64,000 bases of DNA, from IMG/VR virus record IMGVR_UViG_3300005573_001593, positions 1-64,000 of that record; one strand, given 5' to 3'. Shown here one piece after another: positions 745 to 57,656 of this stretch. This stretch comes from a virus. Taxonomy: Duplodnaviria; Caudoviricetes. Below the pieces are notes generated by a model, which did no database searches, was not told the origin of the DNA, and worked only from the letters and a program-made list of their open reading frames with translations. Made by a program: the position numbers and the translations under genes. Each line of letters opens with the position of its first letter. The stretch's first letter is position 1.

Positions 745-1284
745 GTACCTCGTCCTCTCTCTGGCGTGCGCCCTGGCTCGACGACCGCCCTGCATGCACA
801 TCGCGTGCCGGAAGCATCGGCGGGGCCATCCGGGGAAACAGCGGCGCATCCCCATTTCTCCGGTCTGCTTGTATGATAGATCTGGCTCTGGGGCATATCC
901 AGTGGTCGCGCTCAAGCGCATGCCGCGTGGTTGATCAACATGCTTCCACATCCTGTCTATTCAGGCACTGGCATGAACCGGTGATGCGATTGTGACTGGA
1001 TGGAGTAGAAATGATTCCGCCCGCATGGTATACTCCACCTGACCTGTTGTCAGTGTAGGCGTCGGTGTGGCGTATTGCTGCTGAAGTGCCGCGTGGACGG
1101 ATAGCTGACCTCTTTTGGCGTCTCTCCCAGATGGCTTCCCTGCGTGGCGCGCATCCTTTCCCCCGGTTTCGTTTCTCACTCGGTCATCCAGGCAACACCA
1201 GGTGCCACCTTGCCCCCAGACTACGCAAGCGTGGGCCTGGCCAGTGGTCACGCGAGGAATAGCGTGACCAAGCGAGGTACGCCA

Positions 1285-2748
1285 ATGTCTACTGACTCTG
1301 GTGGCCGGCACTCTTCCCCTTCTGGTCCCAGGAAATGGCCTTTCTTTGGCCACCGTGAATCCGAACAGTCACCCACCCCATCGCCAGCGGACGGCTCTCC
1401 GACAGTCGAATACCAGTACGACGTAGCGGACATTGATGAGGAGGAAATCCCCTCCATGAAGCCGAGCGATTCATCCGGTTCAAGACCAATCAACGTAAAT
1501 CCCGCGAACTGGGGCCAGCACTCCACCTCCCGCCCCTCGCGCTTCCTCAAACTCTACGATGAGATCAAGGCGCAGCCACACGGCGAGGAATCGCTCTGGC
1601 CGATCTACAACCACGTACACCAAATTCAGCACAGCGCCCCGGGGGCTGCCTCGCGGGTACTCGATGAGTATGTGCCTAGTTTGCATGAATATTCGGCATC
1701 TCCGGACCTCTGGCACAATCTATCTATCGTCGCCAGCCGCATTGATAATGAGCAGGCGGAATTGCGCTTTGTGCTTCATGGTCTTGCGCAATGGCCCGAA
1801 GATGTTGATCTTCTCTGCGACGCGCTGGAACTAGTTCATAAGTCTGGCGAGCAGACCGATCCGGCCGCAGCCGAAGTCATCTGGAACGTTCTTGAGAGCA
1901 TGAACCGCGCGATTACTGGACCATTCTGGCGTTTCTGGGTATTCGGAGCGCAGTACTACATCCGCGACAGAGGAGATCCCGGACGCGCCATGGAGTTGCT
2001 TGATGAAGGACTTCTTCTGGTGCAGCGCGATGGTCTGTACAACATTCTCAACGCGTACCGAGCGGTCCTGATTGATGCTAAACCTACACGTGTTCTGCGT
2101 TCGCTAGAGGAGGTAAAAGCCTATCAGGGCGAGATCCTCAGACAACTTGAGGAAAAATACGTTCTCGGCATTGCGCTTGGCGTCGAGAATGCCCATATAC
2201 TCGCCGTGGCGCTTGCAAAACTCTATCAGGAGCGGGCAGGCGAAGGGCTGGGGGATGACGATTCCGAAACAGACGGGAGCATTCGCGAACAAAATCTGAC
2301 GAAGGCTCTATTCTACCTAGACCTTGCCGAGACACTCTTTACTGGCTCGGTTAATCACAACATCGCGGCCATCTATGAAGCACGCGCCCGGATCATGATG
2401 GTGCAGCATCGCTTTGGCGAGGCCCTGCGGCACATGCGCAGTCTGCCGCCTACACGCCAGCAAGAACCAACAGTTGCCGCTATGATGCGCCTGGCGGCGT
2501 TGAGCATTGGCGAAAATCCAGACAGCGGGCCAGAAAACGGAGGGAGCGGACGAGGTGCAGGAAGCGGAGGCGATGCACCTGGGGCAGGCGCAAGCAAAGC
2601 GGAGATCATTAGCGAGTTCCTCAATGATCTGTTCGCTTCACAGGGAGCAAAGCTGTTGGCGATTGCCAGTGAACATCCACAAATTAGGCAAATCGTGCTC
2701 GCGGTCGCATCTCAGTTGAACGCCTCGGACCCGGAGGTGCCTGCATGA
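1285..2748 (+). CDS. TPR-like alpha-helical protein with disordered acidic N-terminus
   Basis: Long ORF with amphipathic helical repeats (e.g. AMELLDEGLLLV, ALFYLDLAETL, ARARIMMVQHRFGEALRHM). Start at ATG 1285 after GAGG. Stop overlaps the next start (ATGA). Confidence 0.6.
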   Translation: MSTDSGGRHSSPSGPRKWPFFGHRESEQSPTPSPADGSPTVEYQYDVADIDEEEIPSMKPSDSSGSRPINVNPANWGQHSTSRPSRFLKLYDEIKAQPHGEESLWPIYNHVHQIQHSAPGAASRVLDEYVPSLHEYSASPDLWHNLSIVASRIDNEQAELRFVLHGLAQWPEDVDLLCDALELVHKSGEQTDPAAAEVIWNVLESMNRAITGPFWRFWVFGAQYYIRDRGDPGRAMELLDEGLLLVQRDGLYNILNAYRAVLIDAKPTRVLRSLEEVKAYQGEILRQLEEKYVLGIALGVENAHILAVALAKLYQERAGEGLGDDDSETDGSIREQNLTKALFYLDLAETLFTGSVNHNIAAIYEARARIMMVQHRFGEALRHMRSLPPTRQQEPTVAAMMRLAALSIGENPDSGPENGGSGRGAGSGGDAPGAGASKAEIISEFLNDLFASQGAKLLAIASEHPQIRQIVLAVASQLNASDPEVPA

Positions 2749-4193
2749 TGAAAGTCGCCGCGTTACAACGTCACTTTCCGAATTTCTCGCATGATATAGA
2801 CGAACTCGACCATCTTGACGACGAACTCGGGCGAGGCGATCTCGCTAGGGGTATAGCAGATGAGATTCGAAAGAGTCCGGATGGATTAGGGCCTCGTGTC
2901 ATTGGCATCTATGGGTGGTGGGGCGCGGGCAAATCCTATTTACTCAGTCAGATAATCCGACACCTTCTTGCGGGCAATGAGACGGATACAGAACGCGGAA
3001 TCGTGGTGGTTCGCTACCGCACGTGGGAGTATGAGACGCAGGGCGATCTCACCCCGGGCCTTATTTTGTCGATGCGCAATGTCGATCAGCAATACCGGCA
3101 TACGAATCCGTCGAATCCGCCATTGCTGGTGGGAAGGGGCAAATCAAGCTACAAAGAGCAGGCAAATATGCTGCTCAAAACTGTTCTGCGGACTACGGCG
3201 TTCGCGGTGGGGATGGCGGCTGCCATGCTGCCGCAGGGGCAGGCGCTGACGTCCATGATTCAGTGGTATACCAGCAGCACGATTCGCGATGTGAACCAGG
3301 CACGCCGACGAGCATCAAATCATGGCAAACTAGCGCCCTATGAGGACGATGCGGTTCAGAGAATCAAGGCCGAGATGCAGAGTCTGGTGGACGGCATCAT
3401 CGAAGCGGCGAGAGCGGGAAACGAAAAGCGCAAAGCCTCATGGCGCGTAGTCGTTTTCATCGATGACCTTGACCGGTGTTCACCCGAGAACATGGTCAAC
3501 ATGTTCGAATGGCTCAAAGTGCATCTGGTCGTGGATCATTGCGTCTACGTGCTTGCCCTTGACCATGTCGCGGCGGCTCGTGCCATTGTTGGCAGGTACA
3601 AAGAATACCTGGGCGACGATCCGGACCTTTCCTATGGTTTTCGGTATCTCGAAAAGTTAGTGGACCGCGAACGGGAACTTGTGGAAAGTCCTAACGTGCA
3701 GCGCATGGCCCTGATCCAGATGTACGGGCAGAATACCCGCTACAGCACAGTGAGCGATGTGGCGAAGGAGCAATCGGGCGGCGACTTTCCTGGCATTATC
3801 TACATTGACGAACTCTTGAGCCTTCGCTCACTTGCGACTCCTCGCACGGTGCTCAAGATCGTAGACAAATATCTGCGTGTGCTGGACGTTATTGATGTGC
3901 AGCAGCTCCAGCATCAACTGCCCTCGGCCTATCACGTCTGGATTCTGTTCATGATCGCCGTCTATTACCGACTCGATCCAGATGATCTCGCAAAGTTTGT
4001 GCGTGGTCAGGGGCCACTCTATCAGTTGTTGCTAACGCCAGAGAAAGAGCAACTCCTTCGGGATATAAGAGATCCTCTCCTCGAGTTTTGCCACTTCGCG
4101 CAGCACCTGGGAAAATCGGGGGGCGAGGCGCTGCGTCCACCGAGCAGCGAAGTCCTGCATAGACTGGCAAACATCATCCTGCAGACGGCCTAA
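2745..4193 (+). CDS. KAP-family P-loop NTPase
   Basis: Walker A VIGIYGWWGAGKS, Walker B VVVFIDDLDRC, YLEKLV motif, and a hydrophobic insert between the Walker motifs, as typical of KAP NTPases. Confidence 0.85.
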   Translation: MMKVAALQRHFPNFSHDIDELDHLDDELGRGDLARGIADEIRKSPDGLGPRVIGIYGWWGAGKSYLLSQIIRHLLAGNETDTERGIVVVRYRTWEYETQGDLTPGLILSMRNVDQQYRHTNPSNPPLLVGRGKSSYKEQANMLLKTVLRTTAFAVGMAAAMLPQGQALTSMIQWYTSSTIRDVNQARRRASNHGKLAPYEDDAVQRIKAEMQSLVDGIIEAARAGNEKRKASWRVVVFIDDLDRCSPENMVNMFEWLKVHLVVDHCVYVLALDHVAAARAIVGRYKEYLGDDPDLSYGFRYLEKLVDRERELVESPNVQRMALIQMYGQNTRYSTVSDVAKEQSGGDFPGIIYIDELLSLRSLATPRTVLKIVDKYLRVLDVIDVQQLQHQLPSAYHVWILFMIAVYYRLDPDDLAKFVRGQGPLYQLLLTPEKEQLLRDIRDPLLEFCHFAQHLGKSGGEALRPPSSEVLHRLANIILQTA

Positions 4194-4266: not shown

Positions 4267-4295
4267 TTGATTTATTTGAACATATGTTCTATATT
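4267..4295 (+). promoter_or_regulatory. sigma70-type promoter (TTGATT-N17-TATATT) with LexA/SOS box GAACATATGTTC (4278-4289) in the spacer
   Basis: Directly visible AT-rich island in GC-rich DNA. Perfect GAAC-N4-GTTC palindrome, the LexA box of Firmicutes/Actinobacteria, also reported for Dehalococcoides (Chloroflexota). Confidence 0.75.
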
Positions 4296-4495
4296 CGTCA
4301 CATGGGTGATGGCTCCGTAGTGCGGTTCGTGTAGCGTCGTCTGTACTGAAGAAGGCGGGCGCGGCTCCCTGGCCGGGGAGGATGCGCCCGCCAGCGCGGT
4401 GAGCCTGAAACCGGGCGCCGCTCTCTCCCGTGGAAGATCGCGGGTTGGGAGCGGCGCCTTCGTCCATTCTGGGGAGCATGCATGGGGAGGAGCGG

Positions 4496-5953
4496 ATGAG
4501 GAGCGAGAAGGCCGAGGTGCGGCGTAGGGCACCGGATGTAACACTGGATGCGATGCCGGAGGAGGAGACCGCGCCGGTTGCCCAGGCGCGGCTCGATGGC
4601 GAGGCAGGGCGGGCGGCGGACGTGGCGCGCGTGGGTTTCGCGCCGATTGTCCGGGTGGATGCGCCGAGCCGCGAAGTGGAACTGTGCGCGACGAGCGAGG
4701 CCGTCGATAGCCACGGCACGGTGTTTGATTATGGCGCGAGCAAGGATGCCTTTACGCGCTGGGCGGGCAACGTTCGCGAGATGCACGACCGCCGCGCCGT
4801 CGGCAGGAGGGTGCAGGTGCGCTGCGACGACGAGACGCGCAAGATCTTCGTGCGCGTGCGCATATCGCGGGGAGCGCAGGACACGTGGGAGAAGGTGCTC
4901 GATGGGACGTTGCGCGGCGCGAGCATCGGAGCCAGCAACGTTACCTGGGAGCGGCAGGTACGGCGCGTCGCGGCAAGTGAGCGCCCGGTGAACGTCGCCA
5001 CGCGCTACGACCTGGTTGAGTTGAGCCTCGTGGATAGTCCCAGCAATCCCGATGCGCTGGGCATCGCCATCGTGCGTGACGCCCTGCCCGATGTGGCGCT
5101 GCTGGATGATCTGGGGCCGGAGCATACGGACGAGGGCACTCCATCTGGCGAACCATACGCGCCGGTCGTTTCGCCGGCGCTGACCCTGCCGCAGCGGACG
5201 CGCGCCAGACGGGAACGCTCCTCGCATCGTGAGCGCCATCGCGGTGAGCCTTCGCGCCAGTCGGGGGCAACGTTGTTCGGCGATACGGATCTGTTTGGTC
5301 CGGTGGAGGCCCGCATCGCGCGCGAGCGGGCCATTCGCGGCTGGGCAGAGCTGGCGGAGGGTGCGCCTGAGACGGCGGCTGGCGCAGCGATTCCGGGGTG
5401 CATGGAGATGCCGCGTGTGCGCGAGGCGATGGGCCAATCCGCGACGCGCCGGGTGGAAACCGCGGATGTAGGTGGGCGGCTGCACAGCGCGGCGCGGGAG
5501 CTGATGCGCGGCTGCCGGTGCCCTCGCTGCGCGGGCGCGCTGGCGGCGCTTGGCGAGACGGAGGAAACACGCGACATAGGGGGCGCGCAGCCACTGGAGG
5601 CCGCGTCGGTGGCCCGGGCGCTCGCGGCGGGACTTTCGGCCAGCGCGGAGCGGCTGGAGCACGTGGATGGCAGCGTGCGCGAGATGCACACGCTGCTCAG
5701 GGCAGCGGTCAGCCAGATGGCGGGAACTGTCGGCGATCTGCGCTCGCGGCTGGATGCGCTGGAGCGTCAGCCTGTGCCGGGAGGTCCCGCGGCGCGACCT
5801 GTGGAGAAGCCGGGCATACTCGCGGCGGGAAGCGGCGTGCAGGCAGCGGAACAGGCGCGGGCGCTGGAATCGCTCGCTGGAAGGATCAGCGATCCGCAGG
5901 CGCAGATCGCCGTCGCGGCGGAGATCATCCGGCTGCGGCAGGCGGAGATGTGA
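4496..5953 (+). CDS. HK97-type prohead protease fused to a scaffold-like coiled-coil region
   Basis: Caudovirus prohead protease pattern: SEAVDSHG, NVREMH (His), GTLRGASIG (Ser), YDLVELSLVDSPSNPDA. C-terminal coiled coil LRSRLDALERQP and an internal CRCPRC. Start at 4496 after GGAGG. Confidence 0.8.
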   Translation: MRSEKAEVRRRAPDVTLDAMPEEETAPVAQARLDGEAGRAADVARVGFAPIVRVDAPSREVELCATSEAVDSHGTVFDYGASKDAFTRWAGNVREMHDRRAVGRRVQVRCDDETRKIFVRVRISRGAQDTWEKVLDGTLRGASIGASNVTWERQVRRVAASERPVNVATRYDLVELSLVDSPSNPDALGIAIVRDALPDVALLDDLGPEHTDEGTPSGEPYAPVVSPALTLPQRTRARRERSSHRERHRGEPSRQSGATLFGDTDLFGPVEARIARERAIRGWAELAEGAPETAAGAAIPGCMEMPRVREAMGQSATRRVETADVGGRLHSAARELMRGCRCPRCAGALAALGETEETRDIGGAQPLEAASVARALAAGLSASAERLEHVDGSVREMHTLLRAAVSQMAGTVGDLRSRLDALERQPVPGGPAARPVEKPGILAAGSGVQAAEQARALESLAGRISDPQAQIAVAAEIIRLRQAEM

Positions 5954-6057: not shown

Positions 6058-6459
6058 ATGACTACAGGACTCTCGACCGGCGCACCGGCTGGGACCGGCA
6101 TTACAGACGAGACGGTCGCGCTGGTGCGCGACGCGATCGCGGATACGACGCGCGCCATTACGACGGCCAGCGGGCTGATCGGCTATGAGCTGGAAGCGCC
6201 GGCGAAGGTGATCGTGCCGGTGACGACACCGCTGGTCAATCTGCTGCCACGGCGGCGTGGCGCGGGCGTGGATGTCGTGCACTGGAAGGCGATCACGAGC
6301 TTTGATACGGCGCGCAACTGGGGCGTGCTTGCGGATGGTGGGACGCCGAGCCAGGTGACGTATGCCGTGGCAGCCATGCAGAATACGCACCAGACGATCA
6401 GCCTGATGAAGTACTCCACCTTCCCATCGCAAGAACCCGCTTGTCATCCAGATTCATGA
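6058..6459 (+). pseudogene. Major capsid protein, 5' fragment truncated by prophage insertion
   Basis: Follows the protease with a strong RBS. GLIGYELEAPAKVIVPVTTPLVNLLPR...HWKAIT resembles the N-terminus of phage MCPs. Only 133 codons; GC3 bias collapses after about 6408, immediately before att-like repeats and the integrase. Confidence 0.7.
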
Positions 6460-6510
6460 TCTGTCTACCTCATCCGCTAGCGCTCAGTGATTGCAAAAGT
6501 GATTGCAAAA
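6397..6510. mobile_element. Putative left attachment junction of the integrated element
   Basis: Palindrome ATCAG-C-CTGAT (6397-6407) at the compositional break. Perfect tandem 12-mer AGTGATTGCAAA x2 (6486-6497, 6498-6509) resembles integrase arm-type sites. Lies downstream of the integrase. Confidence 0.6.
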
Positions 6511-6527
6511 CCTCCCAGAACGCTCTT

Positions 6528-6710
6528 TCACGCGCTTACCTGATGAGGTTGCTCACGTCGCCGCAGATAGTCGCGCAGCACCCACACGATCTCGCTGTTG
6601 ATCGATCGCTCGTTCTCACGTGCTGTCTGCCGTATCCCGTCGAGCAGTTCCTGCGGGAGACGGATGTTGGTGCGCGCTTCGCGTTGTCCGGTCTCGTGTC
6701 TTCGTATCAT
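6528..6710 (-). CDS. Arc-like ribbon-helix-helix DNA-binding protein
   Basis: TNIRLPQELLDGIRQTARENERSINSEIVWVLRDYL is an Arc/Mnt pattern. Confidence 0.8.
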   Translation of the reverse strand: MIRRHETGQREARTNIRLPQELLDGIRQTARENERSINSEIVWVLRDYLRRREQPHQVSA

Positions 6711-6753
6711 GCTGCCAGTGTACTGCCGCAGTGCTGCCATTGTCAAACCCTCC

Positions 6754-7896
6754 TCACCAACCCAGCGCGACGGCTATCGCGGTCGCAGCATCTTCCAACA
6801 TGTCCGGTAGCACATGCGCGTAAATGTTGAGCGTGATAGTGATGTTACTGTGCCCGAGCATCTCCGAGACGACCTTGGGATTGACATTCTGCCCCAGGAG
6901 CAGCGTCGCGGCCGTGTGGCGCAGGTCGTGGAAGCGGATGGTCGGTAATCCCGCGCGTTTGAGAATGCGCGTGTGGCGCCAGCGCACCGCGTCGTGGGTG
7001 AGGGGCCGGCCAATCTCGTCACTGAAGACGACATCGTGCTCTTCCCAGACTGGACCTACGGCCAGCCGTTCGAGGCGTTGCACCTGCCGGTGCTGCCGCA
7101 GCGCCTCGGCTACTGGTGCGGCAATGGTGATCTGGCGGCGCGATGCTCGCGTCTTGGGTTCGGTCCAGACCGGTGCACGCCCCGCATCACTGCCTACCGT
7201 GCCACGCCACTTCAGTGTGGCCACGACACGAATCTTGCGCTGATTGAGGTCCACCTCGCTCCACCGCAGGGCCGTCAGTTCGCCAAGCCGCAGACCTGTC
7301 GCGAGTGCCAGGGTGAACAGCGCGGATAGCCGTTCCGTCTGTGCCTCTTCCAGATACCTTCGCGCCTGCTCGCGACTGAGCGGATGGATGTCGAATCGCC
7401 GGACCGCCGGCGCATCTACCATATCGGCGACGTTGCGCGGCACGATCCCGATCCGTACCGCGCGTTTGAGCGCGAAGTGCAGGATGGAGTGGACGGCCCG
7501 TACCCGCCGCGCGGACAATCCTTTCGCCGCACATGTGGCATAGAGCGCCTGCACGCGCTGCGGGGAGAGCTGCGACAACCGCACGCGCCCAATGTCAGGC
7601 AGTATGTGTAGCCGGATCAGTGCGTCGTAATCGCGCCAGACCTCCTCAACCAGTCGCGGGGGACGCATGGTCTCCATCCAGGCGGCGAGATACTGCATTA
7701 CGGTCTGCCGATCATCTGCGGCAAAGACGCCTTGCTCCAGGTCGCGTAACGCTTTGATGCGCTTGGTGTTGGCTTCCTGCCGGGTCTTGCCGTAGAGCGC
7801 TTTGCGTTTGCCGTTCGGCAGGCTGATCTGTGCTACCCAGCGACCGTCGTTGCGATGGTAGATCGTGCCTTCTCCATGCCCTCGTCGTGCCACCAC
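6754..7896 (-). CDS. int: Tyrosine integrase (phage/Tn916-like)
   Basis: N-terminal RGHGEGTIYHRNDGRW arm-binding region; catalytic ATGLRLGEL (R), FHDLRH (HxxR), LGH and IYAH (Tyr). Confidence 0.95.
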   Translation of the reverse strand: MVARRGHGEGTIYHRNDGRWVAQISLPNGKRKALYGKTRQEANTKRIKALRDLEQGVFAADDRQTVMQYLAAWMETMRPPRLVEEVWRDYDALIRLHILPDIGRVRLSQLSPQRVQALYATCAAKGLSARRVRAVHSILHFALKRAVRIGIVPRNVADMVDAPAVRRFDIHPLSREQARRYLEEAQTERLSALFTLALATGLRLGELTALRWSEVDLNQRKIRVVATLKWRGTVGSDAGRAPVWTEPKTRASRRQITIAAPVAEALRQHRQVQRLERLAVGPVWEEHDVVFSDEIGRPLTHDAVRWRHTRILKRAGLPTIRFHDLRHTAATLLLGQNVNPKVVSEMLGHSNITITLNIYAHVLPDMLEDAATAIAVALGW

Positions 7897-7908: not shown

Positions 7909-8163
7909 CTATGCCGTCTGTGCGGCGATGAACGCTTCCAGCTCGCTCGCGGGAATGCAGCGGTACCGTCCGACCTTAAGAGAACGCAACGTGCCACGCC
8001 GTATCAACCGCTCGATGGTCGGCACACTACTGAAGAGCAGCTCCGCCGCTTCGGCCTTAGTGTACAGCAGCTTGGGAAGAGTCGGGGGGTGGATCGGCCC
8101 TTTCGGCTGCCGCCTACGAGCTGGTGCCTTGACTCTTGGTTTGCTCGCGGTTCGCATGCTCAC
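7909..8163 (-). CDS. xis: Excisionase-like winged HTH (HTH_17)
   Basis: LLYTKAEAAELL...LIRRGTLRSLKVGRYRCIPASELEAFI; directly upstream of int. Confidence 0.8.
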   Translation of the reverse strand: MSMRTASKPRVKAPARRRQPKGPIHPPTLPKLLYTKAEAAELLFSSVPTIERLIRRGTLRSLKVGRYRCIPASELEAFIAAQTA

Positions 8164-9975: not shown

Positions 9976-10381
9976 GGCGTGCCCCGCTATTCGTGCTTGT
10001 TGCTCCAGCACACGAGCTACACAGGTCGCTCTCCATCCAGAAGCAGCCCTCCTCACAGCCCCATTCGTCCGTGCAGCCACAGACGCGGCAGACGCGCACG
10101 CGTTCCTCCGGAGCTACATGCTCGATGTGGTCTTCGCGCAGCACCGTGTCGTGTGCCTCGATGGGATGTTCCTGACGCCTGACCCGGGTGACGTAGATGT
10201 GCCGTGGGAAGTGGACGAGATACCGGTTCATGCCCTGGCTCCGTCGCGTTGGGCGCACGACGATGCCCACCGCGCCTGCCACCATACGTCCATGGAGCAT
10301 GAGTTGCTCCTCTACGCTGCCTCGCACGCGCACCTGCTCGCCAGCAGTGAAGGCGAATGGGGCGCGTTTCGCTGTGCTCAT
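9968..10381 (-). CDS. Hypothetical protein, SH3/KOW-like N-terminus and C-terminal zinc ribbon
   Basis: FTAGEQVRVRG...; CRVCGCTDEWGCEEGCFWMESDLCSSC. Confidence 0.6.
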   Translation of the reverse strand: MSTAKRAPFAFTAGEQVRVRGSVEEQLMLHGRMVAGAVGIVVRPTRRSQGMNRYLVHFPRHIYVTRVRRQEHPIEAHDTVLREDHIEHVAPEERVRVCRVCGCTDEWGCEEGCFWMESDLCSSCAGATSTNSGARHV

Positions 10382-24857: not shown

Positions 24858-25997
24858 CTAACGAAACCTTCCGAGTTCCAAGGGGGCAGATGGGTCGCTG
24901 CGCGGCGAGGAGCGCGATGTATACTCCTCCCTACTGGCATACGGGGCCAGGATTCGCTTCATGGTATGGGGATATTGGCCCATTGCATCAGCAAAACGCT
25001 GGAAGTCGATCGCCGCAGTATTAGCGCCGTATACGACTTCGGCCATACGTGCTAACGCCCGCGGCTTTTCAGGAGCAAGCTCAACAGGCTCCTCCGTCTT
25101 CCATCCCTTGGACCGCAACTGTTCGAACAAATAATTGTACTGACGCTTCGAGATGATTTTCAGCTCGTACGCCCGTTTCATGAGTGCCTGCATGGATACT
25201 CGCCACCGTGCCTTCAAGGCCGCTAACGATGTCAGTGTGAGTGGCGGCACCAACTGGTCGCGAATCACGTCTTCGGGCATAAGGAACTCGGCGGCGAATG
25301 CATATGCTTCCTTCTCTAGTTCCTTGGTCGTGCCTCGCACAGCATGATGCATAACGAGGTGTCCCAGCTCGTGCGCTGCACTGAGCCTCATCCTGTCAAC
25401 GCTTACGCCTCCTGATAGCACGATGACTGGCCAGCGGACTGAACCAGTCGACCATAAGCCAGAGGAACCCGTCCAGAGGGAGTAAGCCTCACGCCCCTCC
25501 AGACGCAACGGAAGAGCGAAAACAAGGACTCCGCTCTCCTCCAAGAGTCTCAGCAAGTGTGAAATAGGCGAATCAGGAGATACGCCCAACAAGGCTCTTG
25601 TCATGCGCGCAGCTTCAGCTGGACTGGTTGGTTCGTCTCCCAGTTGCGGAATGCTCAAACGGATCTTACTGCGCACTTGCTTTATCATGATGCCGAAGGC
25701 TTCAAACTCTATTTCGGCGTACCGCTGTGCCTCACGCTTGTCAACCAATGACAGGTCAGTTTGCCCGCGAAAACGGAGAGAGCCTTCGGGAAACTGAGGT
25801 GGGTCATCTCGTTCAAAAAACACACCAGGAACACCAAGGCGGTTCGAGAGCGCATCCAGCACGTCAGGCGACGGCTGGAAAATACCGCCCTCGATGTGCG
25901 CCACTGTCGTCTGGGCCACGCCTAGGTCTCGAGCTAGCTCCACCTGCGTAAGGCGATTCCACTCACGAGCCTGGCGTATACGCATTCCGTTAATCAT
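24858..25997 (-). CDS. XRE HTH + ImmA/IrrE-family zinc metallopeptidase
   Basis: RIRQAREWNRLTQVELARDLGV HTH; RLSAAHELGHLVMH (HExxH) and EKEAYAFAAEFLMP. Confidence 0.9.
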   Translation of the reverse strand: MINGMRIRQAREWNRLTQVELARDLGVAQTTVAHIEGGIFQPSPDVLDALSNRLGVPGVFFERDDPPQFPEGSLRFRGQTDLSLVDKREAQRYAEIEFEAFGIMIKQVRSKIRLSIPQLGDEPTSPAEAARMTRALLGVSPDSPISHLLRLLEESGVLVFALPLRLEGREAYSLWTGSSGLWSTGSVRWPVIVLSGGVSVDRMRLSAAHELGHLVMHHAVRGTTKELEKEAYAFAAEFLMPEDVIRDQLVPPLTLTSLAALKARWRVSMQALMKRAYELKIISKRQYNYLFEQLRSKGWKTEEPVELAPEKPRALARMAEVVYGANTAAIDFQRFADAMGQYPHTMKRILAPYASREEYTSRSSPRSDPSAPLELGRFR

Positions 25998-30338: not shown

Positions 30339-31731
30339 GGTCAAGTCCGAACTCATCTGTAAATTGGGGTCTCTGGTAGACCCTGGGAATCATGCGAGTT
30401 GGAGCATTGGCGCCTCCTGGCTGAACAAAGGCTGCTGGGACGGGCGCTCGCGCCACAGCCAGTAGGCGGTCATGTCGAAATAGCGGTGGCTTGTGGTCCA
30501 GACTTCATCCTGCTCCATCAGCAGGGCCCCAACCAGACGTACGACCGAGTCTCGGTTGGGAAAGATACGGATGACGCGCTCACGGCGGCGAATCTCCTCA
30601 TTGAGCCGCTCGACGCCATTGGTGGTACGCAGGCGCTTGCGGTACGGCGCTGGTAGTGCGAGGACAGCAGTGGCATCCTCAAAGCCGCGCTCCAACGCCT
30701 TGACGGCGCCCGGCGCGGTCTGCTGGTAGTCGGCGACGAAGGTGGCCAGCAGCGTGCGCGCGGTGGCCTCGTCAGGCGCCTCGAAGATCGGACGCAGGCG
30801 AGCATGCACCTCTTCCTGGAGCGCCTTGGGTGTGGCGTCGGCGATGTTGGCCGACAGGTGCGTCTGGCAACGTTGCCAGGTGGCACCCTGGAACTGGATC
30901 TGCACGGCCTTAACCAATCCGCCGTGGTGGTCGGAGACCACCAGATCGACACCGGATAATCCACGGGCTTTGAGCCAGATGAAGAACTCCATCCACGTGC
31001 GCTCACTCTCGCTGTCGCCGATCCGCAAGCCCAGCACCTCACGGTAGCCAGCGTCGTTGACGCCGGTCGCCACCAGCGCGCTGACTGCCCGCACGCGTCC
31101 CTCTTCGCGCACCTTCACGACCAGCGCATCCACCAGCACGAACGGGTAGCGCTGCGCTGACAGGTCGCGTTCGTTCCAGGCTGCCACCAGCGGATCGAGC
31201 GCCTTACAGAGATCGGAGACGGTCGACTTGGCGAAGCTCGTTCCACACAACTCCTCAGTGATGCGCGCCACTTTGCGCGTCGAGACGCCGTTGACCACCA
31301 TTTCCATGAGCGTGAGCACCAAGGCTTGTTCGCTGCGCTGATAGCGGGCGAAGAGCTCCGTCGAGAACTGCCCGTCTCGGACTTGTGGCACTTGCAGCGT
31401 CAGTGCGCCTACCCGCGTGGTCAGTTGGCGGGGCTTGTAGCCGTTGCGGTACCCCTGCCGCTGCTCGCTGCGTTCATACGGCGCGACCTGGAGTTGCTCG
31501 GTGACTTGGGCGTTCAAGACTTGATTCAAGACCGCCTCCAGCAAACGACCTAGCTGGCCGTCTCCGGTAAACAGGCGTTGCACGCTCTCGCTATCTAGCG
31601 TAAGCTGGTACTGCATCACGGGTGTCCTCTCTTGGCTAGCTGACGGTTTGGTCACTATCAGTCTACCAGAGAGGCCCCGCTTCCCTTACCTAGCAGGCGC
31701 TTCCCAATTTACAGATGATACCGGACTCAAT
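30339..31731 (-). mobile_element. IS256-family insertion sequence
   Basis: Imperfect terminal IRs sharing AGTCCG-N3-TCATCTGTAAATTGGG; duplicated target AGCAGAAGG at 30330-30338 and 31732-31740; subterminal IR TCTCTGGTAGAC. Confidence 0.92.
30390..31655 (-). CDS. IS256/Mutator-family DDE transposase
   Basis: RNGYKPRQL, YPFVLVDAL, VVSDHHGGL, WQRCQTH, RTTNGVERLNEEIRRR. The true start may be ATG 31616. Confidence 0.95.
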   Translation of the reverse strand: MTKPSASQERTPVMQYQLTLDSESVQRLFTGDGQLGRLLEAVLNQVLNAQVTEQLQVAPYERSEQRQGYRNGYKPRQLTTRVGALTLQVPQVRDGQFSTELFARYQRSEQALVLTLMEMVVNGVSTRKVARITEELCGTSFAKSTVSDLCKALDPLVAAWNERDLSAQRYPFVLVDALVVKVREEGRVRAVSALVATGVNDAGYREVLGLRIGDSESERTWMEFFIWLKARGLSGVDLVVSDHHGGLVKAVQIQFQGATWQRCQTHLSANIADATPKALQEEVHARLRPIFEAPDEATARTLLATFVADYQQTAPGAVKALERGFEDATAVLALPAPYRKRLRTTNGVERLNEEIRRRERVIRIFPNRDSVVRLVGALLMEQDEVWTTSHRYFDMTAYWLWRERPSQQPLFSQEAPMLQLA

Positions 31732-33385
31732 AGCAGAAGGCGTATCGGGATACTTGGGGCCGCGGACTCGACAGCTATCTGCAATGGTTCTATGAGGCAG
31801 TTGTGCTACTAAGAGAACTGCTGACCGAGGATGGGAGTATCTACGTTCACCTGGATTGGCATGTGGGTCACTATGCAAAAGTCATAATGGATGAAGTATT
31901 CGCCTATGACAATTTCATAAACCAGATTGTATGGAAACGACAGACCGCTCACAGCGATTATGGGCAAGGTGCTAAGCACTTTGGACGCTTACATGACACC
32001 ATCCTGTTCTACTCAAAGTCTACAGAGTTTGTCCTGAATCCCGCCTATAAAGCCTATGATGCCGAGTACATAAAGAGCCACTACAGCCTTATAGAGGAAG
32101 AAACAGGGCGGCGTTATCAACTCGGAGACCTCACTGGACCCGGCGGACAATCGAAGGGTAATCCTTATTACGAACTGATGGGATTCACAGGATATTGGCG
32201 GTACTCGAAGGAACATATGGCAGAACTTGTCGCTGCTGGACGTGTTATACAGCCAAGTCCTGGTTCTCGCCCTCGTCAGAAGCGTTACTTGGACGAGATG
32301 TCTGGTTTACCAGTTCAGGACGTATGGGATGATATCAACCCGATTAACTCTCAAGCGCGAGAATCTATAGGCTATGCCACCCAGAAGCCGGAAGCTCTTC
32401 TCGAACGCATCATCAAGGCTTCTTCCAACGAAGGCGACCTTGTGCTCGACTGCTTCTGTGGCAGTGGCACAACAGCGGCAGTCGCGGAGAAACTGGGGCG
32501 CAGGTGGATCGCTGCTGATCTTGGCCGCTTCGCCATCCACACTACGCGCAAGCGACTATTGAGCATTGAAAACGTCAAGCCATTTGCCGTCCAGAACCTC
32601 GGCAAGTACGAGCGGCAGGCGTGGCAAGTAAATGAGTTCGCGGGCGGAGATGTGCGACAGTCGGCACAGGCGCAACTTGGCTATCGCCGCTTCATGCTCG
32701 ATCTCTACCGCGCCCAGCCGATCTCCGGCTATACGTGGCTGCATGGAGTGCGTGACGGGCGGCTCGTGCATGTCGGCAGCGTAGACGCGCCAGTAGCCGT
32801 CGGTGACGTGCAGCAGATCGTCAAGGAGTTCTGGAAGACTCGTGGGCAAGCGATGACGAATGGCGTGGATGTGCTCGGGTGGGACTTCGCCTTTGAGCTG
32901 AACGAGGTCGCCGCGCAGATGGCGGCGGAGGCCAGCGTCACCCTCAAGTTCAAGCGTGTGCCGCGTGAGGTGCTGGAGAAGAAGGCAGTCGAACAGGGCG
33001 ATATCAGGTTCTTTGAGCTGGCCGCGCTGAGCACACGCGTCAGCCAGAAAGCAGGTGATATGCTCGATGCTCCGGCGCGTGAGCATGGGCCGCACGTCAC
33101 CATCACGCTCACCGATTTCGTCGTGCCGCCGGATGATGTGCCGGAAGACGTGCAGCGAGCCGTCAAGCACTGGAGCCAGTGGATTGACTACTGGGCGGTG
33201 GACTGGGACTTCAAGGGCGACGCCTTCCACAATATGGCGCAGACCTACCGCACGCGCAAAGACCCGCAGCTTCAGACGAGCCTCGCGCACCTGTACGAGC
33301 AGCCCGGTACCTACACCGTCGTCGTGAAAGTTATTGACATCCTTGGCAACGACACGACCAAGACACTCACGGTGGAGGTGCGCTG

Positions 33386-35950
33386 ATGGCTCGCCGGAAG
33401 GGCACGGAAGCGGACGCTTACAACCTTGCGCTCTTCGACAAGCAGGAATACCTCAAGACCGCACCATGCGTGCCCGCCCTGCGGCGCAAGGTGGTCGAAT
33501 GGCGTGATGCCGACTACGAAGGCGCAACGGCAACGACCCGCAGCCTACTCCGGTGGTGGTTTAGAAACGATCATCGCATGCCGGATGGGCGCCTCTTCGC
33601 CTACCACTCGTCGCAGCGTGAAGCCATCGAGACGCTGATCTACACGTACGAAGTCGCGAAAGTACGCACCCGGCAGGAGCTCCTGGAACACTTCGCACGC
33701 GCCGGGGAGCAGATTCGCCTGCCACCGGATGATGACTTCGCGCGCTATTGCACGAAGATGGCGACTGGCTCCGGCAAGACCAAGGTCATGTCGCTGGCTA
33801 TCGCGTGGCACTACTGGAATGCGGTCATGGAGGCAGACGGCAGCGACTACGCCACCACCTTCCTGATCGTCGCGCCCAACGTCATCGTGCTGGAGCGGCT
33901 CAAGGCCGATTTCGCGGGTGGACGCATCTTCCAGGCTGATCCCGTCATGCCGCCGCACCTGCGCTACCTCTGGGATGTCGAGACGATGGTGCGCGGTGAC
34001 GGTGAGCGAGTGCACTCCGATGGGTTGGTCCTGCTCACCAATATCCAGCAACTCTATGAGCGCCCAGAGAAAGCCAACGGCGACGAACCGGAGGCACTTG
34101 CGGCGGTACTTGGTCCCAAAGGGCCGGCACCGCGCGGCGAGTCCGCCGATTTTCTGGACGCTATTGCCAGACGCAGCGGCAAGTTGCTTGTGCTCAACGA
34201 CGAGGCGCACCATACCCACGATGAGGACAACGAGTGGAATAACGTCATCAAGCGGTTGCATAGCGTCACGCCCATCGCGAGCCAGGTGGACTACTCCGCG
34301 ACACCGCGCTTCCAGAAGGGTGCGCTCTTCCCGTGGGTCATCTCAGACTATCCGCTCAAACAGGCCATTCTCGATGGCGTCGTGAAGCGTCCATACAAGG
34401 GTGTGGCGGATATTCACGAGGCGCCATCGGAGTATGCCAGCATCCGCTACGAGGGCTATCTCACCGCGGGTGTGCAGCGCTGGCGTGAGTATCGCGACCA
34501 GTTGGCTGACGTCGGCAAGCGCCCGTTGCTCTTCCTGATGCTCAACAGCACCAGTGAAGCCGATGACGTCGGCGACTGGCTGCGCACGAAGTACCCCGAG
34601 GACTTCGCGGGTGACAAGACGCTGGTTATCCATACCAAGAGCGATGGCGAGATCACGACGAAAGACCTCGAAACGGCGCGCAGGATTTCCCGTGAAGTGG
34701 ACAGCCCCGATTGCCCGGTCAATGCCATCGTGAGCGTGCTGATGCTGCGGGAAGGCTGGGACGTGCAGAATGTCACCGTCGTGGTGGGCTTGCGCCCGTA
34801 CAGCGCGAAGGCGAACATTCTGCCGGAGCAGACCATCGGGCGTGGTCTTCGGCTGATGTTCCGCGATCAGGGGTTGAGCTACCGCGAGCGGGTGGACATC
34901 ATCGGCAACAAGGCATTCTTGGACTTTGTCGAAGATCTGGAGCGACTGGAAGAGCTGAGCCTCGATTCCTTCCAGGTCGGCAAGGACAAACTCTCCATCC
35001 TCACGATTCATCCGGTGCTGCCAGACAAGAGGGCATTTGACATCGCCTTCCCGCAACTCAGTCCCATCCTGCAGCGCAAGAAGTCGCTGGCGGAGGAGAT
35101 CGCAGCCATTGACGTACGCCGCTTCCTCTGTCCACCACTGCCCAAGCGCCCCGGTGACATGGCAGAGCGGCAGTTTCGCTACGAGGGCTACGACTTCATC
35201 ACGCTGGAACGCGAGTTTGAGCGCGAGTACAGCATCCCGACCCCACAGACCTCCGGTGAGGTCATCGGCTACTACGCGCGGATGATTGCCAAGGATCTCA
35301 AGCTGCCCTCACAGTTCCACGTGCTCGCGCCCAAGGTGCGGGAGTTCTTTGAAATCAAAGCGTTTGGAGAGCCCGTGGATCTGGATGACCCGGCGATCAT
35401 TCAGGCGATGAGCCGACCAGCGGTGGGCTACGTGGTCAAGCGCCTCTTCACTGCGGCACTGAGCAGCCGCCTGATCGAGGAACTGGAGCCGGAGTTACTG
35501 ACCGAGCCTCGCTACCTCTCCGAGACGCAGCCGTTCCCCTTCTCCAATGGCAACGCTGTGGACGGGCACAAGTGCATCCTCAACTACGCGCCCTGTACCA
35601 ACGAATTTGAGAAGCAATTCGGGCGGTTCCTCGATGGCGCGGGGGATATTACGGCGTGGTGCAAGATTCCCGACAGCTTCAAGTTCAGCATCGAGTACAC
35701 CGACCAGAACGCCAGCCTGCGCTACTACTATCCCGACTTTGTCGCTATTGCGGACGACGGCACACACTGGATCATCGAGACGAAGGGTGCGGAGACGGTG
35801 GAGGTGGCCTACAAAGACCGCGCTGCGCGCCTCTGGTGTGACAATGCCACGGACCTCACGGACATGCGGTGGGAGTACGTTAAGGTGCAGCAGAAGGCAT
35901 TCTACGAGATGCAGCCAGCGGTCTTCGCGGATATTACACTGATGCGGTAA
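33386..35950 (+). CDS. res: Type III restriction endonuclease/helicase subunit (Res)
   Basis: KMATGSGKT, NDEAHH, LREGWD, QTIGRGLR; C-terminal YYPDFV...IETKG nuclease; coupled to mod. Confidence 0.9.
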   Translation: MARRKGTEADAYNLALFDKQEYLKTAPCVPALRRKVVEWRDADYEGATATTRSLLRWWFRNDHRMPDGRLFAYHSSQREAIETLIYTYEVAKVRTRQELLEHFARAGEQIRLPPDDDFARYCTKMATGSGKTKVMSLAIAWHYWNAVMEADGSDYATTFLIVAPNVIVLERLKADFAGGRIFQADPVMPPHLRYLWDVETMVRGDGERVHSDGLVLLTNIQQLYERPEKANGDEPEALAAVLGPKGPAPRGESADFLDAIARRSGKLLVLNDEAHHTHDEDNEWNNVIKRLHSVTPIASQVDYSATPRFQKGALFPWVISDYPLKQAILDGVVKRPYKGVADIHEAPSEYASIRYEGYLTAGVQRWREYRDQLADVGKRPLLFLMLNSTSEADDVGDWLRTKYPEDFAGDKTLVIHTKSDGEITTKDLETARRISREVDSPDCPVNAIVSVLMLREGWDVQNVTVVVGLRPYSAKANILPEQTIGRGLRLMFRDQGLSYRERVDIIGNKAFLDFVEDLERLEELSLDSFQVGKDKLSILTIHPVLPDKRAFDIAFPQLSPILQRKKSLAEEIAAIDVRRFLCPPLPKRPGDMAERQFRYEGYDFITLEREFEREYSIPTPQTSGEVIGYYARMIAKDLKLPSQFHVLAPKVREFFEIKAFGEPVDLDDPAIIQAMSRPAVGYVVKRLFTAALSSRLIEELEPELLTEPRYLSETQPFPFSNGNAVDGHKCILNYAPCTNEFEKQFGRFLDGAGDITAWCKIPDSFKFSIEYTDQNASLRYYYPDFVAIADDGTHWIIETKGAETVEVAYKDRAARLWCDNATDLTDMRWEYVKVQQKAFYEMQPAVFADITLMR

Positions 35951-36031
35951 TGGTTGCGTTCAGTCCCGGCATCAGAATGCTCCTAGCAAGTGCGATATGG
36001 AGCCTGTTGTAGGCGATGGGAGTGCGTGGAC

Positions 36032-37312
36032 ATGGAAGAGCAGCCCCACGAAGAAACACTCGACGTATTGAACCCTGGTTTTGATCGGACATGTGCGATG
36101 TCGTGGCCATTTGCCCATCGTCTCAGCCCAACCTATGGCCTTCCCGAGCACGGCACGGCGGGAACCCAGTCAGTTCCGATGCCGGATCCCTGGACGCGAT
36201 TGCTCTGGTGGGAATCACAATGGCAGGCAGAAATCGGCATCAAAGACCTATGCGCTCAACCGTACATTGATCTGCAAAACCTGCCAGGAATGGGCTATGG
36301 TGACGAAATAGCTGTACCAACACGAGCTTGGTATCCCTATGCACTCTGCAGTTCGCAAACTGATCGTATCAAGACCGCCGCACGCACTATCTCAGCGCTC
36401 GCTCGGCAGGCTCGTGAGCTCTATGCGGCAGCTGCGGCAAGTGATGTGACCGATGTCAGTAAGCCAATCTTGTATTTCTACGGAGCTGAAGCTCTTGCTC
36501 AGGCCGTTATCATTTCTTTGTTTGGAGTTGAACGGTTTGAGTCGAGGCACGCGCGAGAGCATGGTCTAAACTGCCCGCGTGAGCACGGCGTGACGACAAG
36601 GCACCCAGATGGGGTAAAGTGGCCGACTACGATTGAGTGGAAGCCCAAGGGCATCTTTGCCATGTTCTATCGTGCAACACGCTGGGATCGTTTGTACGAC
36701 TGCTGTTCAACCCACAGCGCGTGGAAGTCAATCACCTCAACGGTCACTCCTGAGTTTCATGTATTGGAATGTATCCGCTGGTTGGGACTCGACTGGGGTA
36801 CGTTGCCAGCGACCGGATTTGAAATAGAGCAGCCATATCAGGCGGTACCAGCCTCACGTCTTGAGCCGCTACTTATGGTGTATCGGCCTGGTGGTCACCT
36901 GTTTCTGTCCATTCACACCCCTCGCCCGTTCCCATCTGTTAACGTTCCACGCGCTATAGTCCAGTACATGCTGCTGTTCTACTTCTCGATACTTGCTCGG
37001 TACCATACCGTCATCTGGCAGGAGTTACTTGCAGGTGTGGAGGAGCCGGAAGGCTTCGTATTCCGCGTTGCGTTTGAACAGGTGGCACTCGACTTCCTGA
37101 ACGAGATGACATCTCTGCTGCCGAGACCATTCCCCGATGGACGCACACGGCCTATCGCATGGTATACAGGCTCCAAAGAGGAGTTATTGCGCGACTGGTA
37201 TCGTCCAGACAAAATATTGGTTGGTGGTCCACACTTGCCGCCGATGAAGTGGTATTACTGGCAGGAATGGCAGGGTGAACCGAGCGTCACGTGTCCCGAA
37301 AGGCAGCGTTGA
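36032..37312 (+). CDS. YaaC-like protein
   Basis: KPILYFYG, HGL and LLFYFSILARY...W motifs. Confidence 0.65.
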   Translation: MEEQPHEETLDVLNPGFDRTCAMSWPFAHRLSPTYGLPEHGTAGTQSVPMPDPWTRLLWWESQWQAEIGIKDLCAQPYIDLQNLPGMGYGDEIAVPTRAWYPYALCSSQTDRIKTAARTISALARQARELYAAAAASDVTDVSKPILYFYGAEALAQAVIISLFGVERFESRHAREHGLNCPREHGVTTRHPDGVKWPTTIEWKPKGIFAMFYRATRWDRLYDCCSTHSAWKSITSTVTPEFHVLECIRWLGLDWGTLPATGFEIEQPYQAVPASRLEPLLMVYRPGGHLFLSIHTPRPFPSVNVPRAIVQYMLLFYFSILARYHTVIWQELLAGVEEPEGFVFRVAFEQVALDFLNEMTSLLPRPFPDGRTRPIAWYTGSKEELLRDWYRPDKILVGGPHLPPMKWYYWQEWQGEPSVTCPERQR

Positions 37313-52803: not shown

Positions 52804-53766
52804 TTACTGACTTCGCCGCTTGCGACGCCCTTCAGCGTACGCCCGTTTGAGCGACTCGCTCCGCTTGGCGCGGGTCTCTGCGCTCTGGACGTGGCCGCGT
52901 TTCTTTTCTGCGATGCGTCGCTTCGTTTCCTCAGAGTGTGGCGTGGTATGGTACGCTTTCCCCAGGTGTGCAAGACGCATGCGCTCCAAGCCTTCCGGCG
53001 TCATCTGCGGTGGCTTGATCTCGCCTCGTGCGGCCCGCTCCAGGCCGATCTGGCGCAACTTCTCTCGTGTTTCCGATCCCCACGTCTTGCCTTTATTCCA
53101 GCCGCCAAAGTCCGCGCGAACTGACCTGCGGCCTTCAGCATAGGCGTGTTTGAGGGCTTCCGAACGCTTCTGACGTGTTTCAGCAGATTGCTTGCGGCCA
53201 GTCTGCCACGCGCGTACACGAGCACGGTACTCATCTGTGCCATGGTGAAGGCGTATAGCCGCAGAAAGTCTTTCGCGGGTCGCCTCACTGAGCGGCACAC
53301 CCTTATTGGATGGCACCTGCCCGAGATGGGCTATGGAGAGCTTGCGGCGGTACTCGGCGCTGAAGGTCTTGCCCGAGTGAGGATGCCCATCTCGTTGAAG
53401 GCGTCGTCGTGCCGCCTCAGCCATGCGCTGGCGCATCTCTGGCGTGAAATCGAATGGCTTGTTTACCTGAAACGCGACATTGAGTTGCGGCGCGAGCGTG
53501 TCTATCCAGTGCTGCTCACGCTCCGTAAGCCGGTCGGGTGAACACTGTTCCAGCACAGCCCACTGGAAGGCTTTCTCTCCGTATTTGTTCCACTCATGTT
53601 GGAAATGGGGGCTGTGGTGCTTGTTAGCGCGAAGGAGCTCGAGATGATCGTTCCAGCGCCGTTCAATGTCAATAGAGCGACCGATGTACTGTTTTCCGGT
53701 GGGGATACACGTGGCGGCATAGATACCGCACAGCGATAAAGAGGCAGACTCGTCCACTGTTCTCAC
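52804..53766 (-). CDS. Free-standing GIY-YIG homing endonuclease with NUMOD3 repeats
   Basis: CGIYAATC...YIGRSIDIERRW...H...E; repeats SAETRQKRSE, SEETKRRIAE, SEATRERLS. Confidence 0.9.
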   Translation of the reverse strand: MRTVDESASLSLCGIYAATCIPTGKQYIGRSIDIERRWNDHLELLRANKHHSPHFQHEWNKYGEKAFQWAVLEQCSPDRLTEREQHWIDTLAPQLNVAFQVNKPFDFTPEMRQRMAEAARRRLQRDGHPHSGKTFSAEYRRKLSIAHLGQVPSNKGVPLSEATRERLSAAIRLHHGTDEYRARVRAWQTGRKQSAETRQKRSEALKHAYAEGRRSVRADFGGWNKGKTWGSETREKLRQIGLERAARGEIKPPQMTPEGLERMRLAHLGKAYHTTPHSEETKRRIAEKKRGHVQSAETRAKRSESLKRAYAEGRRKRRSQ

Positions 53767-56591: not shown

Positions 56592-57656
56592 TTACGACAG
56601 GTAGCGCGGTGTCCAGATGGCGTAGACATCGACGATGGGCTGCGTCGAAGCGGTCACCTGCAACGTGAGCACGGTCCCAGTTGGCTCGATGACCGGGAAG
56701 GTGCCGGAGAACGCGATGAGTGTGCCGGGCGCGGCGCTGGAGACGACCGTGTAGCCGTTGGCCTGACGCGGGTCACAGCCAATGGTGATCTGCTGTCCGG
56801 GTGCCCAACTCAGGTTGCTCACCTGAAGCGAGGAGCCATCGGGGTTCTGCGAGAGCGTAAAGCCCGTGATGGTCGCGGCAGCGTAGTCGCATGAGGTCGT
56901 GGTGCCCGGATAGGAGAAGTTGGCCGTGAACGACGTGACACTGAGCGTAGTGGCCCCTGATGCCGCCGCTGCGGACAGCGTTACGGTCTGCGTGTGTCCC
57001 GTGCCATCATTGAGCGTAAACTGTGTGCCGGCCGGCGCGCTCGCGGGCAGGGCCGCTACGCTCAGACTGGTATAGGCGTTGCCGCTGGTTAGTGCCGCTG
57101 AGAGCGTCGTGTTGACAGCCTGCGAGTTGTTGGTCAGCGTGAGCGTTGGGTAGGCATACTCGGTACCACTGCTGGAGACGACCAGATTACCGCTGATCCA
57201 GTTGGATCCGGATACCAGGGCATACGCAAGACTACTGGAGTCGTAGCTGCTGGGTGTGGCCGCGTAAAGGTACGGGTCCACCGCCAGGAACGTGATCTGG
57301 ATCGTGACCGCAAGGAGGCGTGTCGCACGGTAGGTAATCGGTGCGCTGATGGCGTCGCAGACCAGATAGCGGTCGTCCAGCATGTGAATGGCCAGTTGCT
57401 GTTGCCGCTGGTTCAGCGCCTGCAAGAGCACATCCACCTTGCTTTCGAGATCGGCGCGTGAGCTGCCGACGACGACCACCGTTACCGTCGCACGTCGCTC
57501 GTTGATAATCGTGCCGGTCGTCTTTACACCAGGGTACCGTGCGACTTTGAAGACGCTCTCCTGCACCTCCGGCAAGCCGAGCTTCTTGTCGGTTACGAAA
57601 TAATTCGTACCGTCATTGAGCTGGAAGGTCCCGAACGTATAGCTGGGTAGCGCCAT
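56592..57656 (-). CDS. Distal tail protein (Dit)
   Basis: Directly after the TMP; FGTFQLND...RRATVTV...ITFLAVDPYLY Dit pattern with an inserted module. Confidence 0.75.
   Translation of the reverse strand: MALPSYTFGTFQLNDGTNYFVTDKKLGLPEVQESVFKVARYPGVKTTGTIINERRATVTVVVVGSSRADLESKVDVLLQALNQRQQQLAIHMLDDRYLVCDAISAPITYRATRLLAVTIQITFLAVDPYLYAATPSSYDSSSLAYALVSGSNWISGNLVVSSSGTEYAYPTLTLTNNSQAVNTTLSAALTSGNAYTSLSVAALPASAPAGTQFTLNDGTGHTQTVTLSAAAASGATTLSVTSFTANFSYPGTTTSCDYAAATITGFTLSQNPDGSSLQVSNLSWAPGQQITIGCDPRQANGYTVVSSAAPGTLIAFSGTFPVIEPTGTVLTLQVTASTQPIVDVYAIWTPRYLS

Follow-up and report, generated by a model that had tools for sequence, protein, structure and literature searches.

The closest described systems to the locus reported here are the helper-embedded PICIs (HE-PICIs), 10-20 kb satellites of lambdoid prophages, in which a tyrosine-integrase clade targets the prophage capsid gene E and other late genes (PMC10111431); 201 instances at a capsid site have been recorded (Tommasini, Mageeney and Williams 2023, PMC10111431), e.g. 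Eco567.11capE at site E:Phage_cap_E:80. A second group comprises active lysogeny and phage regulatory switches, i.e. the Listeria phages phi10403S/A118 in comK, the Bacillus subtilis element skin in sigK, SPbeta in spsM, and the Staphylococcus aureus phage phiSa3int in hlb (PMC7397523, PMC6597384), and a third comprises the lambda-type prophages at tRNA genes. The present report concerns the IMG/VR virus record IMGVR_UViG_3300005573_001593 (87,533 bp), the first part of which, positions 1 to 64,000, is termed the window, i.e. the whole stretch of DNA that was analysed; positions in the complete record are given as contig positions. In this record, a 79,955-bp prophage interrupts the HK97-fold major capsid protein (MCP) gene of a two-gene protease-capsid operon; the host is a soil bacterium of the Ktedonobacterales (Chloroflexota).

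The locus resembles an HE-PICI in that a phage major capsid gene is the exact insertion point of a tyrosine-integrase element whose attL and attR share a short identity block, and in that the capsid gene is not expressible until the guest excises, the guest having a capsid gene of its own. In guest size, gene content, orientation and host element, the locus falls outside the definition of an HE-PICI: the guest is a 79,955-bp full phage (head, tail and packaging genes) and not a 10-20 kb satellite; it is opposed to its target, whereas HE-PICIs are co-oriented with the helper late operon; and its target, in the Chloroflexota, is an orphan operon of two genes that carries a LexA-type box, in contrast to a complete lambdoid helper prophage of Enterobacteria. 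Furthermore, the guest capsid is dissimilar in sequence to the target, and the nearest relatives of the integrase use tRNA genes. An earlier, sequence-only reading of the window had described a capsid gene as attB as unusual, which is overstated in view of the published HE-PICI integrase clade (PMC10111431). Gene-splitting prophages and capsid-gene satellites are thus already known, and the novelty is the pairing of a full-size phage with an orphan capsid operon.

The split capsid gene and its junctions

The features at the two junctions are as follows.

6058 to 6410, plus strand: 5' part of the HK97-fold MCP gene, codons 1-117 plus 2 nt
6395 to 6410: attL core, a 16-bp identity block CGATCAGCCTGATGAA, including the palindrome ATCAG-C-CTGAT at 6397-6407
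6411 to 6459, plus strand: phage-derived, non-homologous tail of the truncated capsid open reading frame (ORF), with stop; GC falls to 0.49
6411 to 64,000, and on to contig 86,349: prophage of 79,955 bp (PHROG and Pfam searches), the left 57.6 kb of which is in the window
contig 86,350 to 86,365 (10350-10365 of locus L002), outside the window: attR core, an exact second copy of CGATCAGCCTGATGAA
contig 86,366 to 87,533 (10366-11533 of L002), outside the window, plus strand: 3' part of the MCP gene, codons 118-506 plus stop

The MCP frame starts with the ATG at 6058, and its residues 1-117 are about 81% identical to homologues of 506 aa (112 hits, in metagenome-assembled genomes (MAGs) of Ktedonobacterales). 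The homology ends after ...QNTHQTISLM and is followed by 16 unrelated residues and a stop codon at 6457-6459, and the product of the truncated ORF is a 133-aa stub. The remainder of the gene was located by tblastn with full-length homologues at contig 86,350-87,530, on the same strand, and is 85% identical to residues 113-506 of homologue P0007. The two parts are complementary on the phrog_13692 profile, the 5' part covering positions 18-107 and the 3' part positions 117-489. When the left flank, one copy of the core and the right flank are rejoined, a stop-free ORF of 1521 nt (506 codons) is obtained, which reads ...QNTHQTISLMNTVSFQAQWRGRS... across the junction and is colinear with, and 80-86% identical to, the intact homologues. 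Neither half carries stops or frameshifts. Both halves have a GC content of 0.66 and a GC content at third codon positions of 0.80-0.87, which agrees with one original gene; the DNA between them differs, with a GC content of 0.49 directly after the attL core.

The core-to-core distance of 79,955 bp is 3n+2 and shifts frame +3 onto frame +1. A single 16-mer repeat is not rare in 87.5 kb (chance expectation, about 0.9 pairs); the base-exact placement of the repeat at both ends of the homology, together with the frame-preserving distance, is not due to chance. The sequence-only reading had placed a prophage inside the capsid gene, on the break of the MCP frame at about codon 117 beside the ATCAG-C-CTGAT palindrome. 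This is borne out: the palindrome lies inside the 16-bp block, the far end is present and carries the repeat of the core and the in-frame 3' part of the gene, the rejoined frame is open, and the homologues are 506 aa and not about 130 aa long.

An assembly artefact, i.e. the joining of unrelated contexts at a repeated capsid sequence, might be considered, as several copies of the MCP gene occur in some genomes (four assemblies have two loci each) and the contigs of one MAG break inside it. However, the junctions have only 16 bp in common, which is too short for assembler joins, they complement each other to the base and keep the reading frame, both cores have arm-type-like motifs beside them, and integrase and truncated ORF are recorded on two long contigs (310,400 and 384,404 bp); we regard such an artefact as highly improbable. 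In the MAG with the contig break, one contig ends and another begins inside the MCP gene near the att position (L050 and L042; residues 10-140 and 123-505), which could reflect a mixed population of occupied and empty sites, or paralogue repeats.

Attachment sites and integrase

The left edge of the prophage contains the following features.

6485 to 6507 (6485-6495 and 6497-6507), plus strand: two tandem arm-type-like repeats (C/A)AGTGATTGCA in the P' arm (motif match)
6528 to 6746, minus strand: gene for a small Arc/ribbon-helix-helix DNA-binding protein, between attL and int (PF03869 Arc, E 1e-10)
6754 to 7896, minus strand: tyrosine integrase, 380 aa (PF00589, E 4e-30; PF14659; phrog_1, E 1e-74)
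7909 to 8163, minus strand: excisionase/AlpA-like HTH_17 protein (PF12728, E 2e-10; phrog_66)

The core CGATCAGCCTGATGAA is unique in the window when up to two mismatches are allowed, with exactly one more copy in the contig, and the DNA common to both junction regions comprises only this 16-bp block and one AGTGATTGCA motif. The approximately 120 bp to the right of the attL core (49% GC) hold the two tandem motifs, and the sole other copy in the contig is found at 86,231-86,241, 109 bp to the left of the attR core; the arm-type-like motifs are, hence, confined to about 110 bp around the two cores. The arm-like repeats and the integrase aimed at the junction, both reported in the sequence-only reading, were found again (int is a minus-strand gene whose 3' end faces attL); the Arc/ribbon-helix-helix ORF was absent from that reading. 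Directly at the attR core (contig 86,343-86,365; 10343-10365 of L002), a tandem duplication was observed, GATCAGCC-GATCAGCC-TGATGAA, and CCTGATGA occurs again at 6539 in the P' arm; the duplication and this additional copy may represent extra core-type binding sites. Within the MCP gene the core occupies codons 113-118, which are predicted from the fold model described below to lie in the E-loop hairpin of the capsid protein (strands 102-110 and 112-121).

The catalytic-type residues R203, K248, H323, R326, H349 and Y359 of the integrase are invariant across 20 homologues. In its integrase family (PF00589 with a SAM-like N domain), the adjacent excisionase, the arm-type-like repeats on both sides of the core, and the position of int at the edge pointing to attL, the element is like lambda-type prophages at tRNA genes; it is unlike them in having its attB in the middle of a protein-coding gene. 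The best integrase relatives with known loci, at 51-59% identity, abut tRNA-Leu, -SeC, -Ser and -Trp genes (closer relatives in the protein collection are P0117-P0120, at 62-64% identity), and the MCP attB therefore looks like a departure for an integrase of a tRNA-targeting clade. A scan of viral contigs gave no relatives of the integrase.

The target operon and its family

Two further features of the target operon are located upstream of the MCP gene.

4267 to 4295, plus strand: promoter-like TTGATT-N17-TATATT, the spacer of which holds the LexA-type box GAACATATGTTC (4278-4289), 5' of the protease-capsid operon
4430 to 5953, plus strand: prohead protease of 507 aa with a fused, scaffold-like C-terminal part (head maturation protease profile phrog_9427, E 1.7e-34)

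The nature of the interrupted gene was assessed with a fold model of homologue P0007 (AlphaFold2 with an alignment of 112 sequences taken from 1,756 family representatives; pLDDT 78.5, pTM 0.74); an earlier model from 20 close sequences (pLDDT 46.6) was set aside. In Foldseek searches of the PDB, the model matched the capsids of Pa223 and SU10 (E about 1e-12) and of HK97 (E about 1e-7) with a probability of 1.00, and also encapsulins and a gene transfer agent (GTA) capsid with a probability of 1.00. On this model, the interrupted gene truly encodes a capsid protein of the HK97 fold, which has an Ig-like insertion at approximately residues 160-310. Alicyclobacillus phage MMB025 and Arthrobacter phage Sonali have homologues that are annotated as major head or capsid protein, and P0007 and the C-terminal part of the interrupted MCP align to phrog_13692 end to end. 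Precomputed matches to PF17236 (SU10_MCP) exist for about one third of the homologues; hmmscan of P0007 and of the C-terminal part gave none at E 0.01, and a profile search of the PDB sequences gave no match.

The protease gene is always adjacent to the MCP gene in about 45 species-level genomes, and three genomic contexts were distinguished. In the first, the pair belongs to a full prophage that also has adaptor, portal and terminase genes and whose integrase gene lies at a tRNA gene. In the second, seen at L018:11607-16015 and about 20 other loci, the gene pair is accompanied by a YGGT-family membrane protein, an adaptor-like protein, two small proteins and an endonuclease/exonuclease/phosphatase-family (EEP) protein, with no portal or terminase within 10 kb. 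The third is a bare two-gene operon between cellular genes (deaD, EcsC, AraC, MFS, SDR), with the LexA-type box. The rejoined MCP of the present record clusters with this stand-alone, LexA-box type (tree support 96/88), and the genes found 5' of its protease encode a KAP NTPase, an unknown protein and VIT1; portal and terminase are absent there.

The LexA-type box in the operon promoter is present and recurs elsewhere: as in the window, eight of 45 related loci (L007, L015, L017, L020, L021, L030, L048 and L049) have a GAAC-N4-GTTC box with AT-rich centre 5' of the protease. We take this motif to be the LexA operator of Chloroflexi, after work on Dehalococcoides. The orphan capsid genes have dN/dS ratios (nonsynonymous to synonymous substitution rates) of 0.06-0.08, which indicates strong purifying selection. 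The conserved two-gene operon of Ktedonobacterales looks like a domesticated, DNA-damage-controlled capsid module.

Homologues of portal and TerL, with 64-69% identity to the prophage versions, were found at separate sites in five genomes (including G002, G004, G013 and G025; e.g. in G002:C3 at about 606.8 kb and 826.7 kb); four of the five carry the LexA-box protease-capsid operon, and G025 groups with these in the capsid tree only. A strict GAAC-N4-GTTC box was found in none of the seven dispersed portal or TerL loci (flanks of about 1.5 kb); the single box seen (L175) is located beside the portal gene of a co-located cluster in G002:C13.

The first bases of the record are the stop codon of a VIT1-family gene, and its last are that of the capsid gene (contig 87,533); as both ends coincide with gene ends, it is probably a provirus call that was cut back to gene ends and retains about 6.4 kb of host sequence as its left flank. 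A pattern scan of metagenome contigs gave no exact match for the last 39 bases of the record. Within the left flank, at 1144-4193, a 534-aa protein with no family match is translationally coupled to a KAP-family P-loop NTPase (PF07693, E 3e-19); this pair, located just 5' of the capsid operon, may be of a defence type.

The inserted prophage

The larger ORFs between the two cores were annotated by PHROG and Pfam searches, and the lysis genes were partly checked. The following features were assigned, those at contig positions lying beyond the window.

24858 to 25997, minus strand: XRE plus ImmA-like repressor (PHROG/Pfam)
30390 to 31655, minus strand: transposase (phrog_2331, E 5e-122)
54576 to 56582, minus strand: tail fibre (PHROG/Pfam)
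56592 to 57656, minus strand: Dit (PHROG/Pfam)
57659 to 61255, minus strand: tape measure, 1198 aa (PHROG/Pfam)
contig 66228 to 67181, minus strand: head-tail adaptor
contig 69169 to 70473, minus strand: the phage's own MCP, 434 aa (PF17236 SU10_MCP, E 2e-9)
contig 70578 to 73667, minus strand: protease-scaffold, 1029 aa
contig 75670 to 77697, minus strand: portal
contig 77707 to 79143, minus strand: TerL
contig 79121 to 79732, minus strand: TerS
contig 82175 to 83131, minus strand: DnaC-like loader
contig 84341 to 86125, minus strand: helicase, adjoining attR

Judged by this gene set, the insert is a complete temperate siphovirus-like phage and not a satellite. The int gene and nearly all structural genes are on the strand opposite to the target operon. 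The phage's own capsid and protease have no detectable sequence similarity to the interrupted pair, and hhalign of its capsid against the target family gave nothing significant; given this dissimilarity, self-targeting is not expected. The possibility that the 434-aa phage capsid is a diverged replacement for the target in the style of HE-PICIs was rejected, as no sequence similarity was detectable. The phage is integrated in the MCP gene with no replacement for the displaced part, and the target is therefore inactivated and not preserved.

Two other features of the prophage were recorded. At 30390-37312, the transposase gene either adjoins or interrupts a DNA methyltransferase gene, after which a helicase-type protein is encoded; this fits a type III restriction-modification system disrupted by an insertion sequence (IS) element, as proposed from the sequence before. 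At 52804-53766, among the tail genes, a GIY-YIG-type homing endonuclease gene is predicted (phrog_314, E 1e-33).

Site occupancy and recurrence

The MCP gene was split at this site in none of 51 genome loci and none of three viral loci. Similarly, no MCP fragment or core-like sequence was found beside integrase relatives (34-59% identity) in 80 metagenome and 30 genome loci (0 of 110), and an occupation of homologous MCP genes by related integrases, which the sequence-only reading had raised, was thus not seen. The exact 16-bp core was found in none of the 42 homologous attB regions compared, each having one to eight mismatches; the 3' half of the core, CTGATGAA, is common to all 42.

At the protein level, at least seven public N-terminal MCP fragments of independent origin (NCBI, JGI, ENA, Logan) diverge right after Thr113 or, in one, Met111. 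These truncated ORFs (proteins P0243, P0244, P0248, P0408, P0246, P0251, P0406 and P0407) are diverged alleles up to ...QNT(M/I)QT, or once ...QNTM, followed by several unrelated tails (KHYRY, KHYHY, NYFHY, NHCYCY..., ECYHC..., LSRYYHY...), the breaks being at most four codons (0-4) away from the left edge of the core described here. The tails had no match among the sequences collected for this analysis. The fragments, which may mark a recurrent insertion point beside the present core, are a lead only; integrative elements, introns, IS elements or chimeras could each account for them.

These observations bear on a conflict explanation, i.e. that the phage, or perhaps a guild of elements, targets the MCP gene to silence a competing particle-forming system, such as a resident related prophage, a satellite-like set that supplies capsids, or a GTA-like SOS-induced set, with the payoff that induction of the guest is neither shared with nor parasitised by host capsids. 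The targeted MCP family occurs in full prophages, e.g. in the complete genome G005, where a prophage of about 45 kb with portal and the targeted capsid type (G005:C1:3,374,000-3,418,300; L167-L169 and L139) ends beside a tRNA-SeC gene; its TerL and integrase are 66% and 51% identical to those of the present phage, and the guest is, by this similarity, kin of phages that use the targeted capsid type. The public fragments break after Thr113 or Met111 with several different tails, the LexA-box operon and most prophages are both responsive to DNA damage and would be co-expressed, and the HE-PICIs are a precedent for integrases specialised on a capsid gene. However, there is no second occupied site at the DNA level among the 51 genome and three viral loci, no MCP fragment beside any of the 110 integrase relatives and no exact core in the 42 homologous regions, and the other truncations could be introns, IS elements or assembly breaks. 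We consider conflict unlikely on this balance. In its widest form, E-loop codons of about 111-118 would be a recurrent landing site for different mobile elements, with guest carriage and SOS-induced capsid particles mutually exclusive, in a conflict between phage and a domesticated-capsid or GTA-like system; this, too, is doubtful.

Interpretation of the integration

The reading that we favour, and hold to be somewhat better than evenly probable, is an ordinary choice of attB that happens to lie in a capsid gene, with the reversible inactivation of the gene as a by-product and not as an evolved switch; plain attB choice is also the most economical reading. In this scheme, an integrase clade that uses tRNA genes would have shifted to a conserved, dispensable, phage-derived coding sequence. 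The integrase would recombine the 16-bp core in the MCP gene with the phage attP, in which the core, with the GATCAGCC duplication in front of it, would be flanked by a P arm carrying one arm-type motif and a P' arm carrying two. The lysogen would then lack capsid protein, although its LexA-controlled promoter could still yield the protease and a 133-aa stub of no use, and the integrase together with the Xis-like protein would reverse the integration precisely and rebuild the MCP gene. If excision accompanies lytic induction, the restored MCP would be present mainly in cells that are about to lyse.

Several points weigh against this choice. Breaks at the same codons recurring in other datasets hint at more targeting than a casual attB choice would imply. 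In the protein collection there is no intact allele more than about 82% identical to the N-terminal part of the MCP, and therefore no empty site on record from the same population. Finally, the record ends at the capsid stop, and further phage-derived genes could follow the target.

Active lysogeny was considered as well, i.e. that the host has co-opted excision and that a full capsid requires both LexA derepression and departure of the prophage. Such a switch would be consistent with the precise in-frame restoration, intact int and xis genes, MCP halves free of stops and frameshifts, the LexA-type box on the operon, and purifying selection on the target family, which implies a function worth restoring. 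The locus is like the comK, sigK, spsM and hlb systems in that an element splits a chromosomal ORF that precise excision restores, and restorability is the only trait in common; cue-driven excision and a benefit have been demonstrated experimentally for those systems, whereas the present case is known from its sequence, and the interrupted gene here is itself of viral origin. Moreover, lysis as well as virion genes belong to the guest, a complete phage, and SOS-linked excision would therefore normally end in lysis; its genes face against the operon, so that cis coupling of the HE-PICI type is impossible; and the arrangement was seen once at the DNA level among about 55 loci (0 of 51 genome and 0 of three viral loci split), whereas a fixed device is expected lineage-wide. 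We therefore regard active lysogeny as distinctly improbable.

Significance

The target operon is maintained by purifying selection and carries a LexA-type box in a little-studied phylum. If the operon makes particles (GTA-like, compartment-like or satellite-like), the lysogen is a natural and reversible knockout, and the comparison of lysogen, cured strain and induced cells would offer a direct handle on the role of the orphan capsid. The gain of a protein-coding attB by an integrase of a tRNA-using clade informs how integration specificity shifts. A conflict at a hotspot, if true, would be the first of its kind beyond the HE-PICIs of enterobacteria, and also the first in which the guest is a full-size phage, and the interest of the locus would rise if either a hotspot at codon 113 or a role of the orphan capsid operon is borne out.

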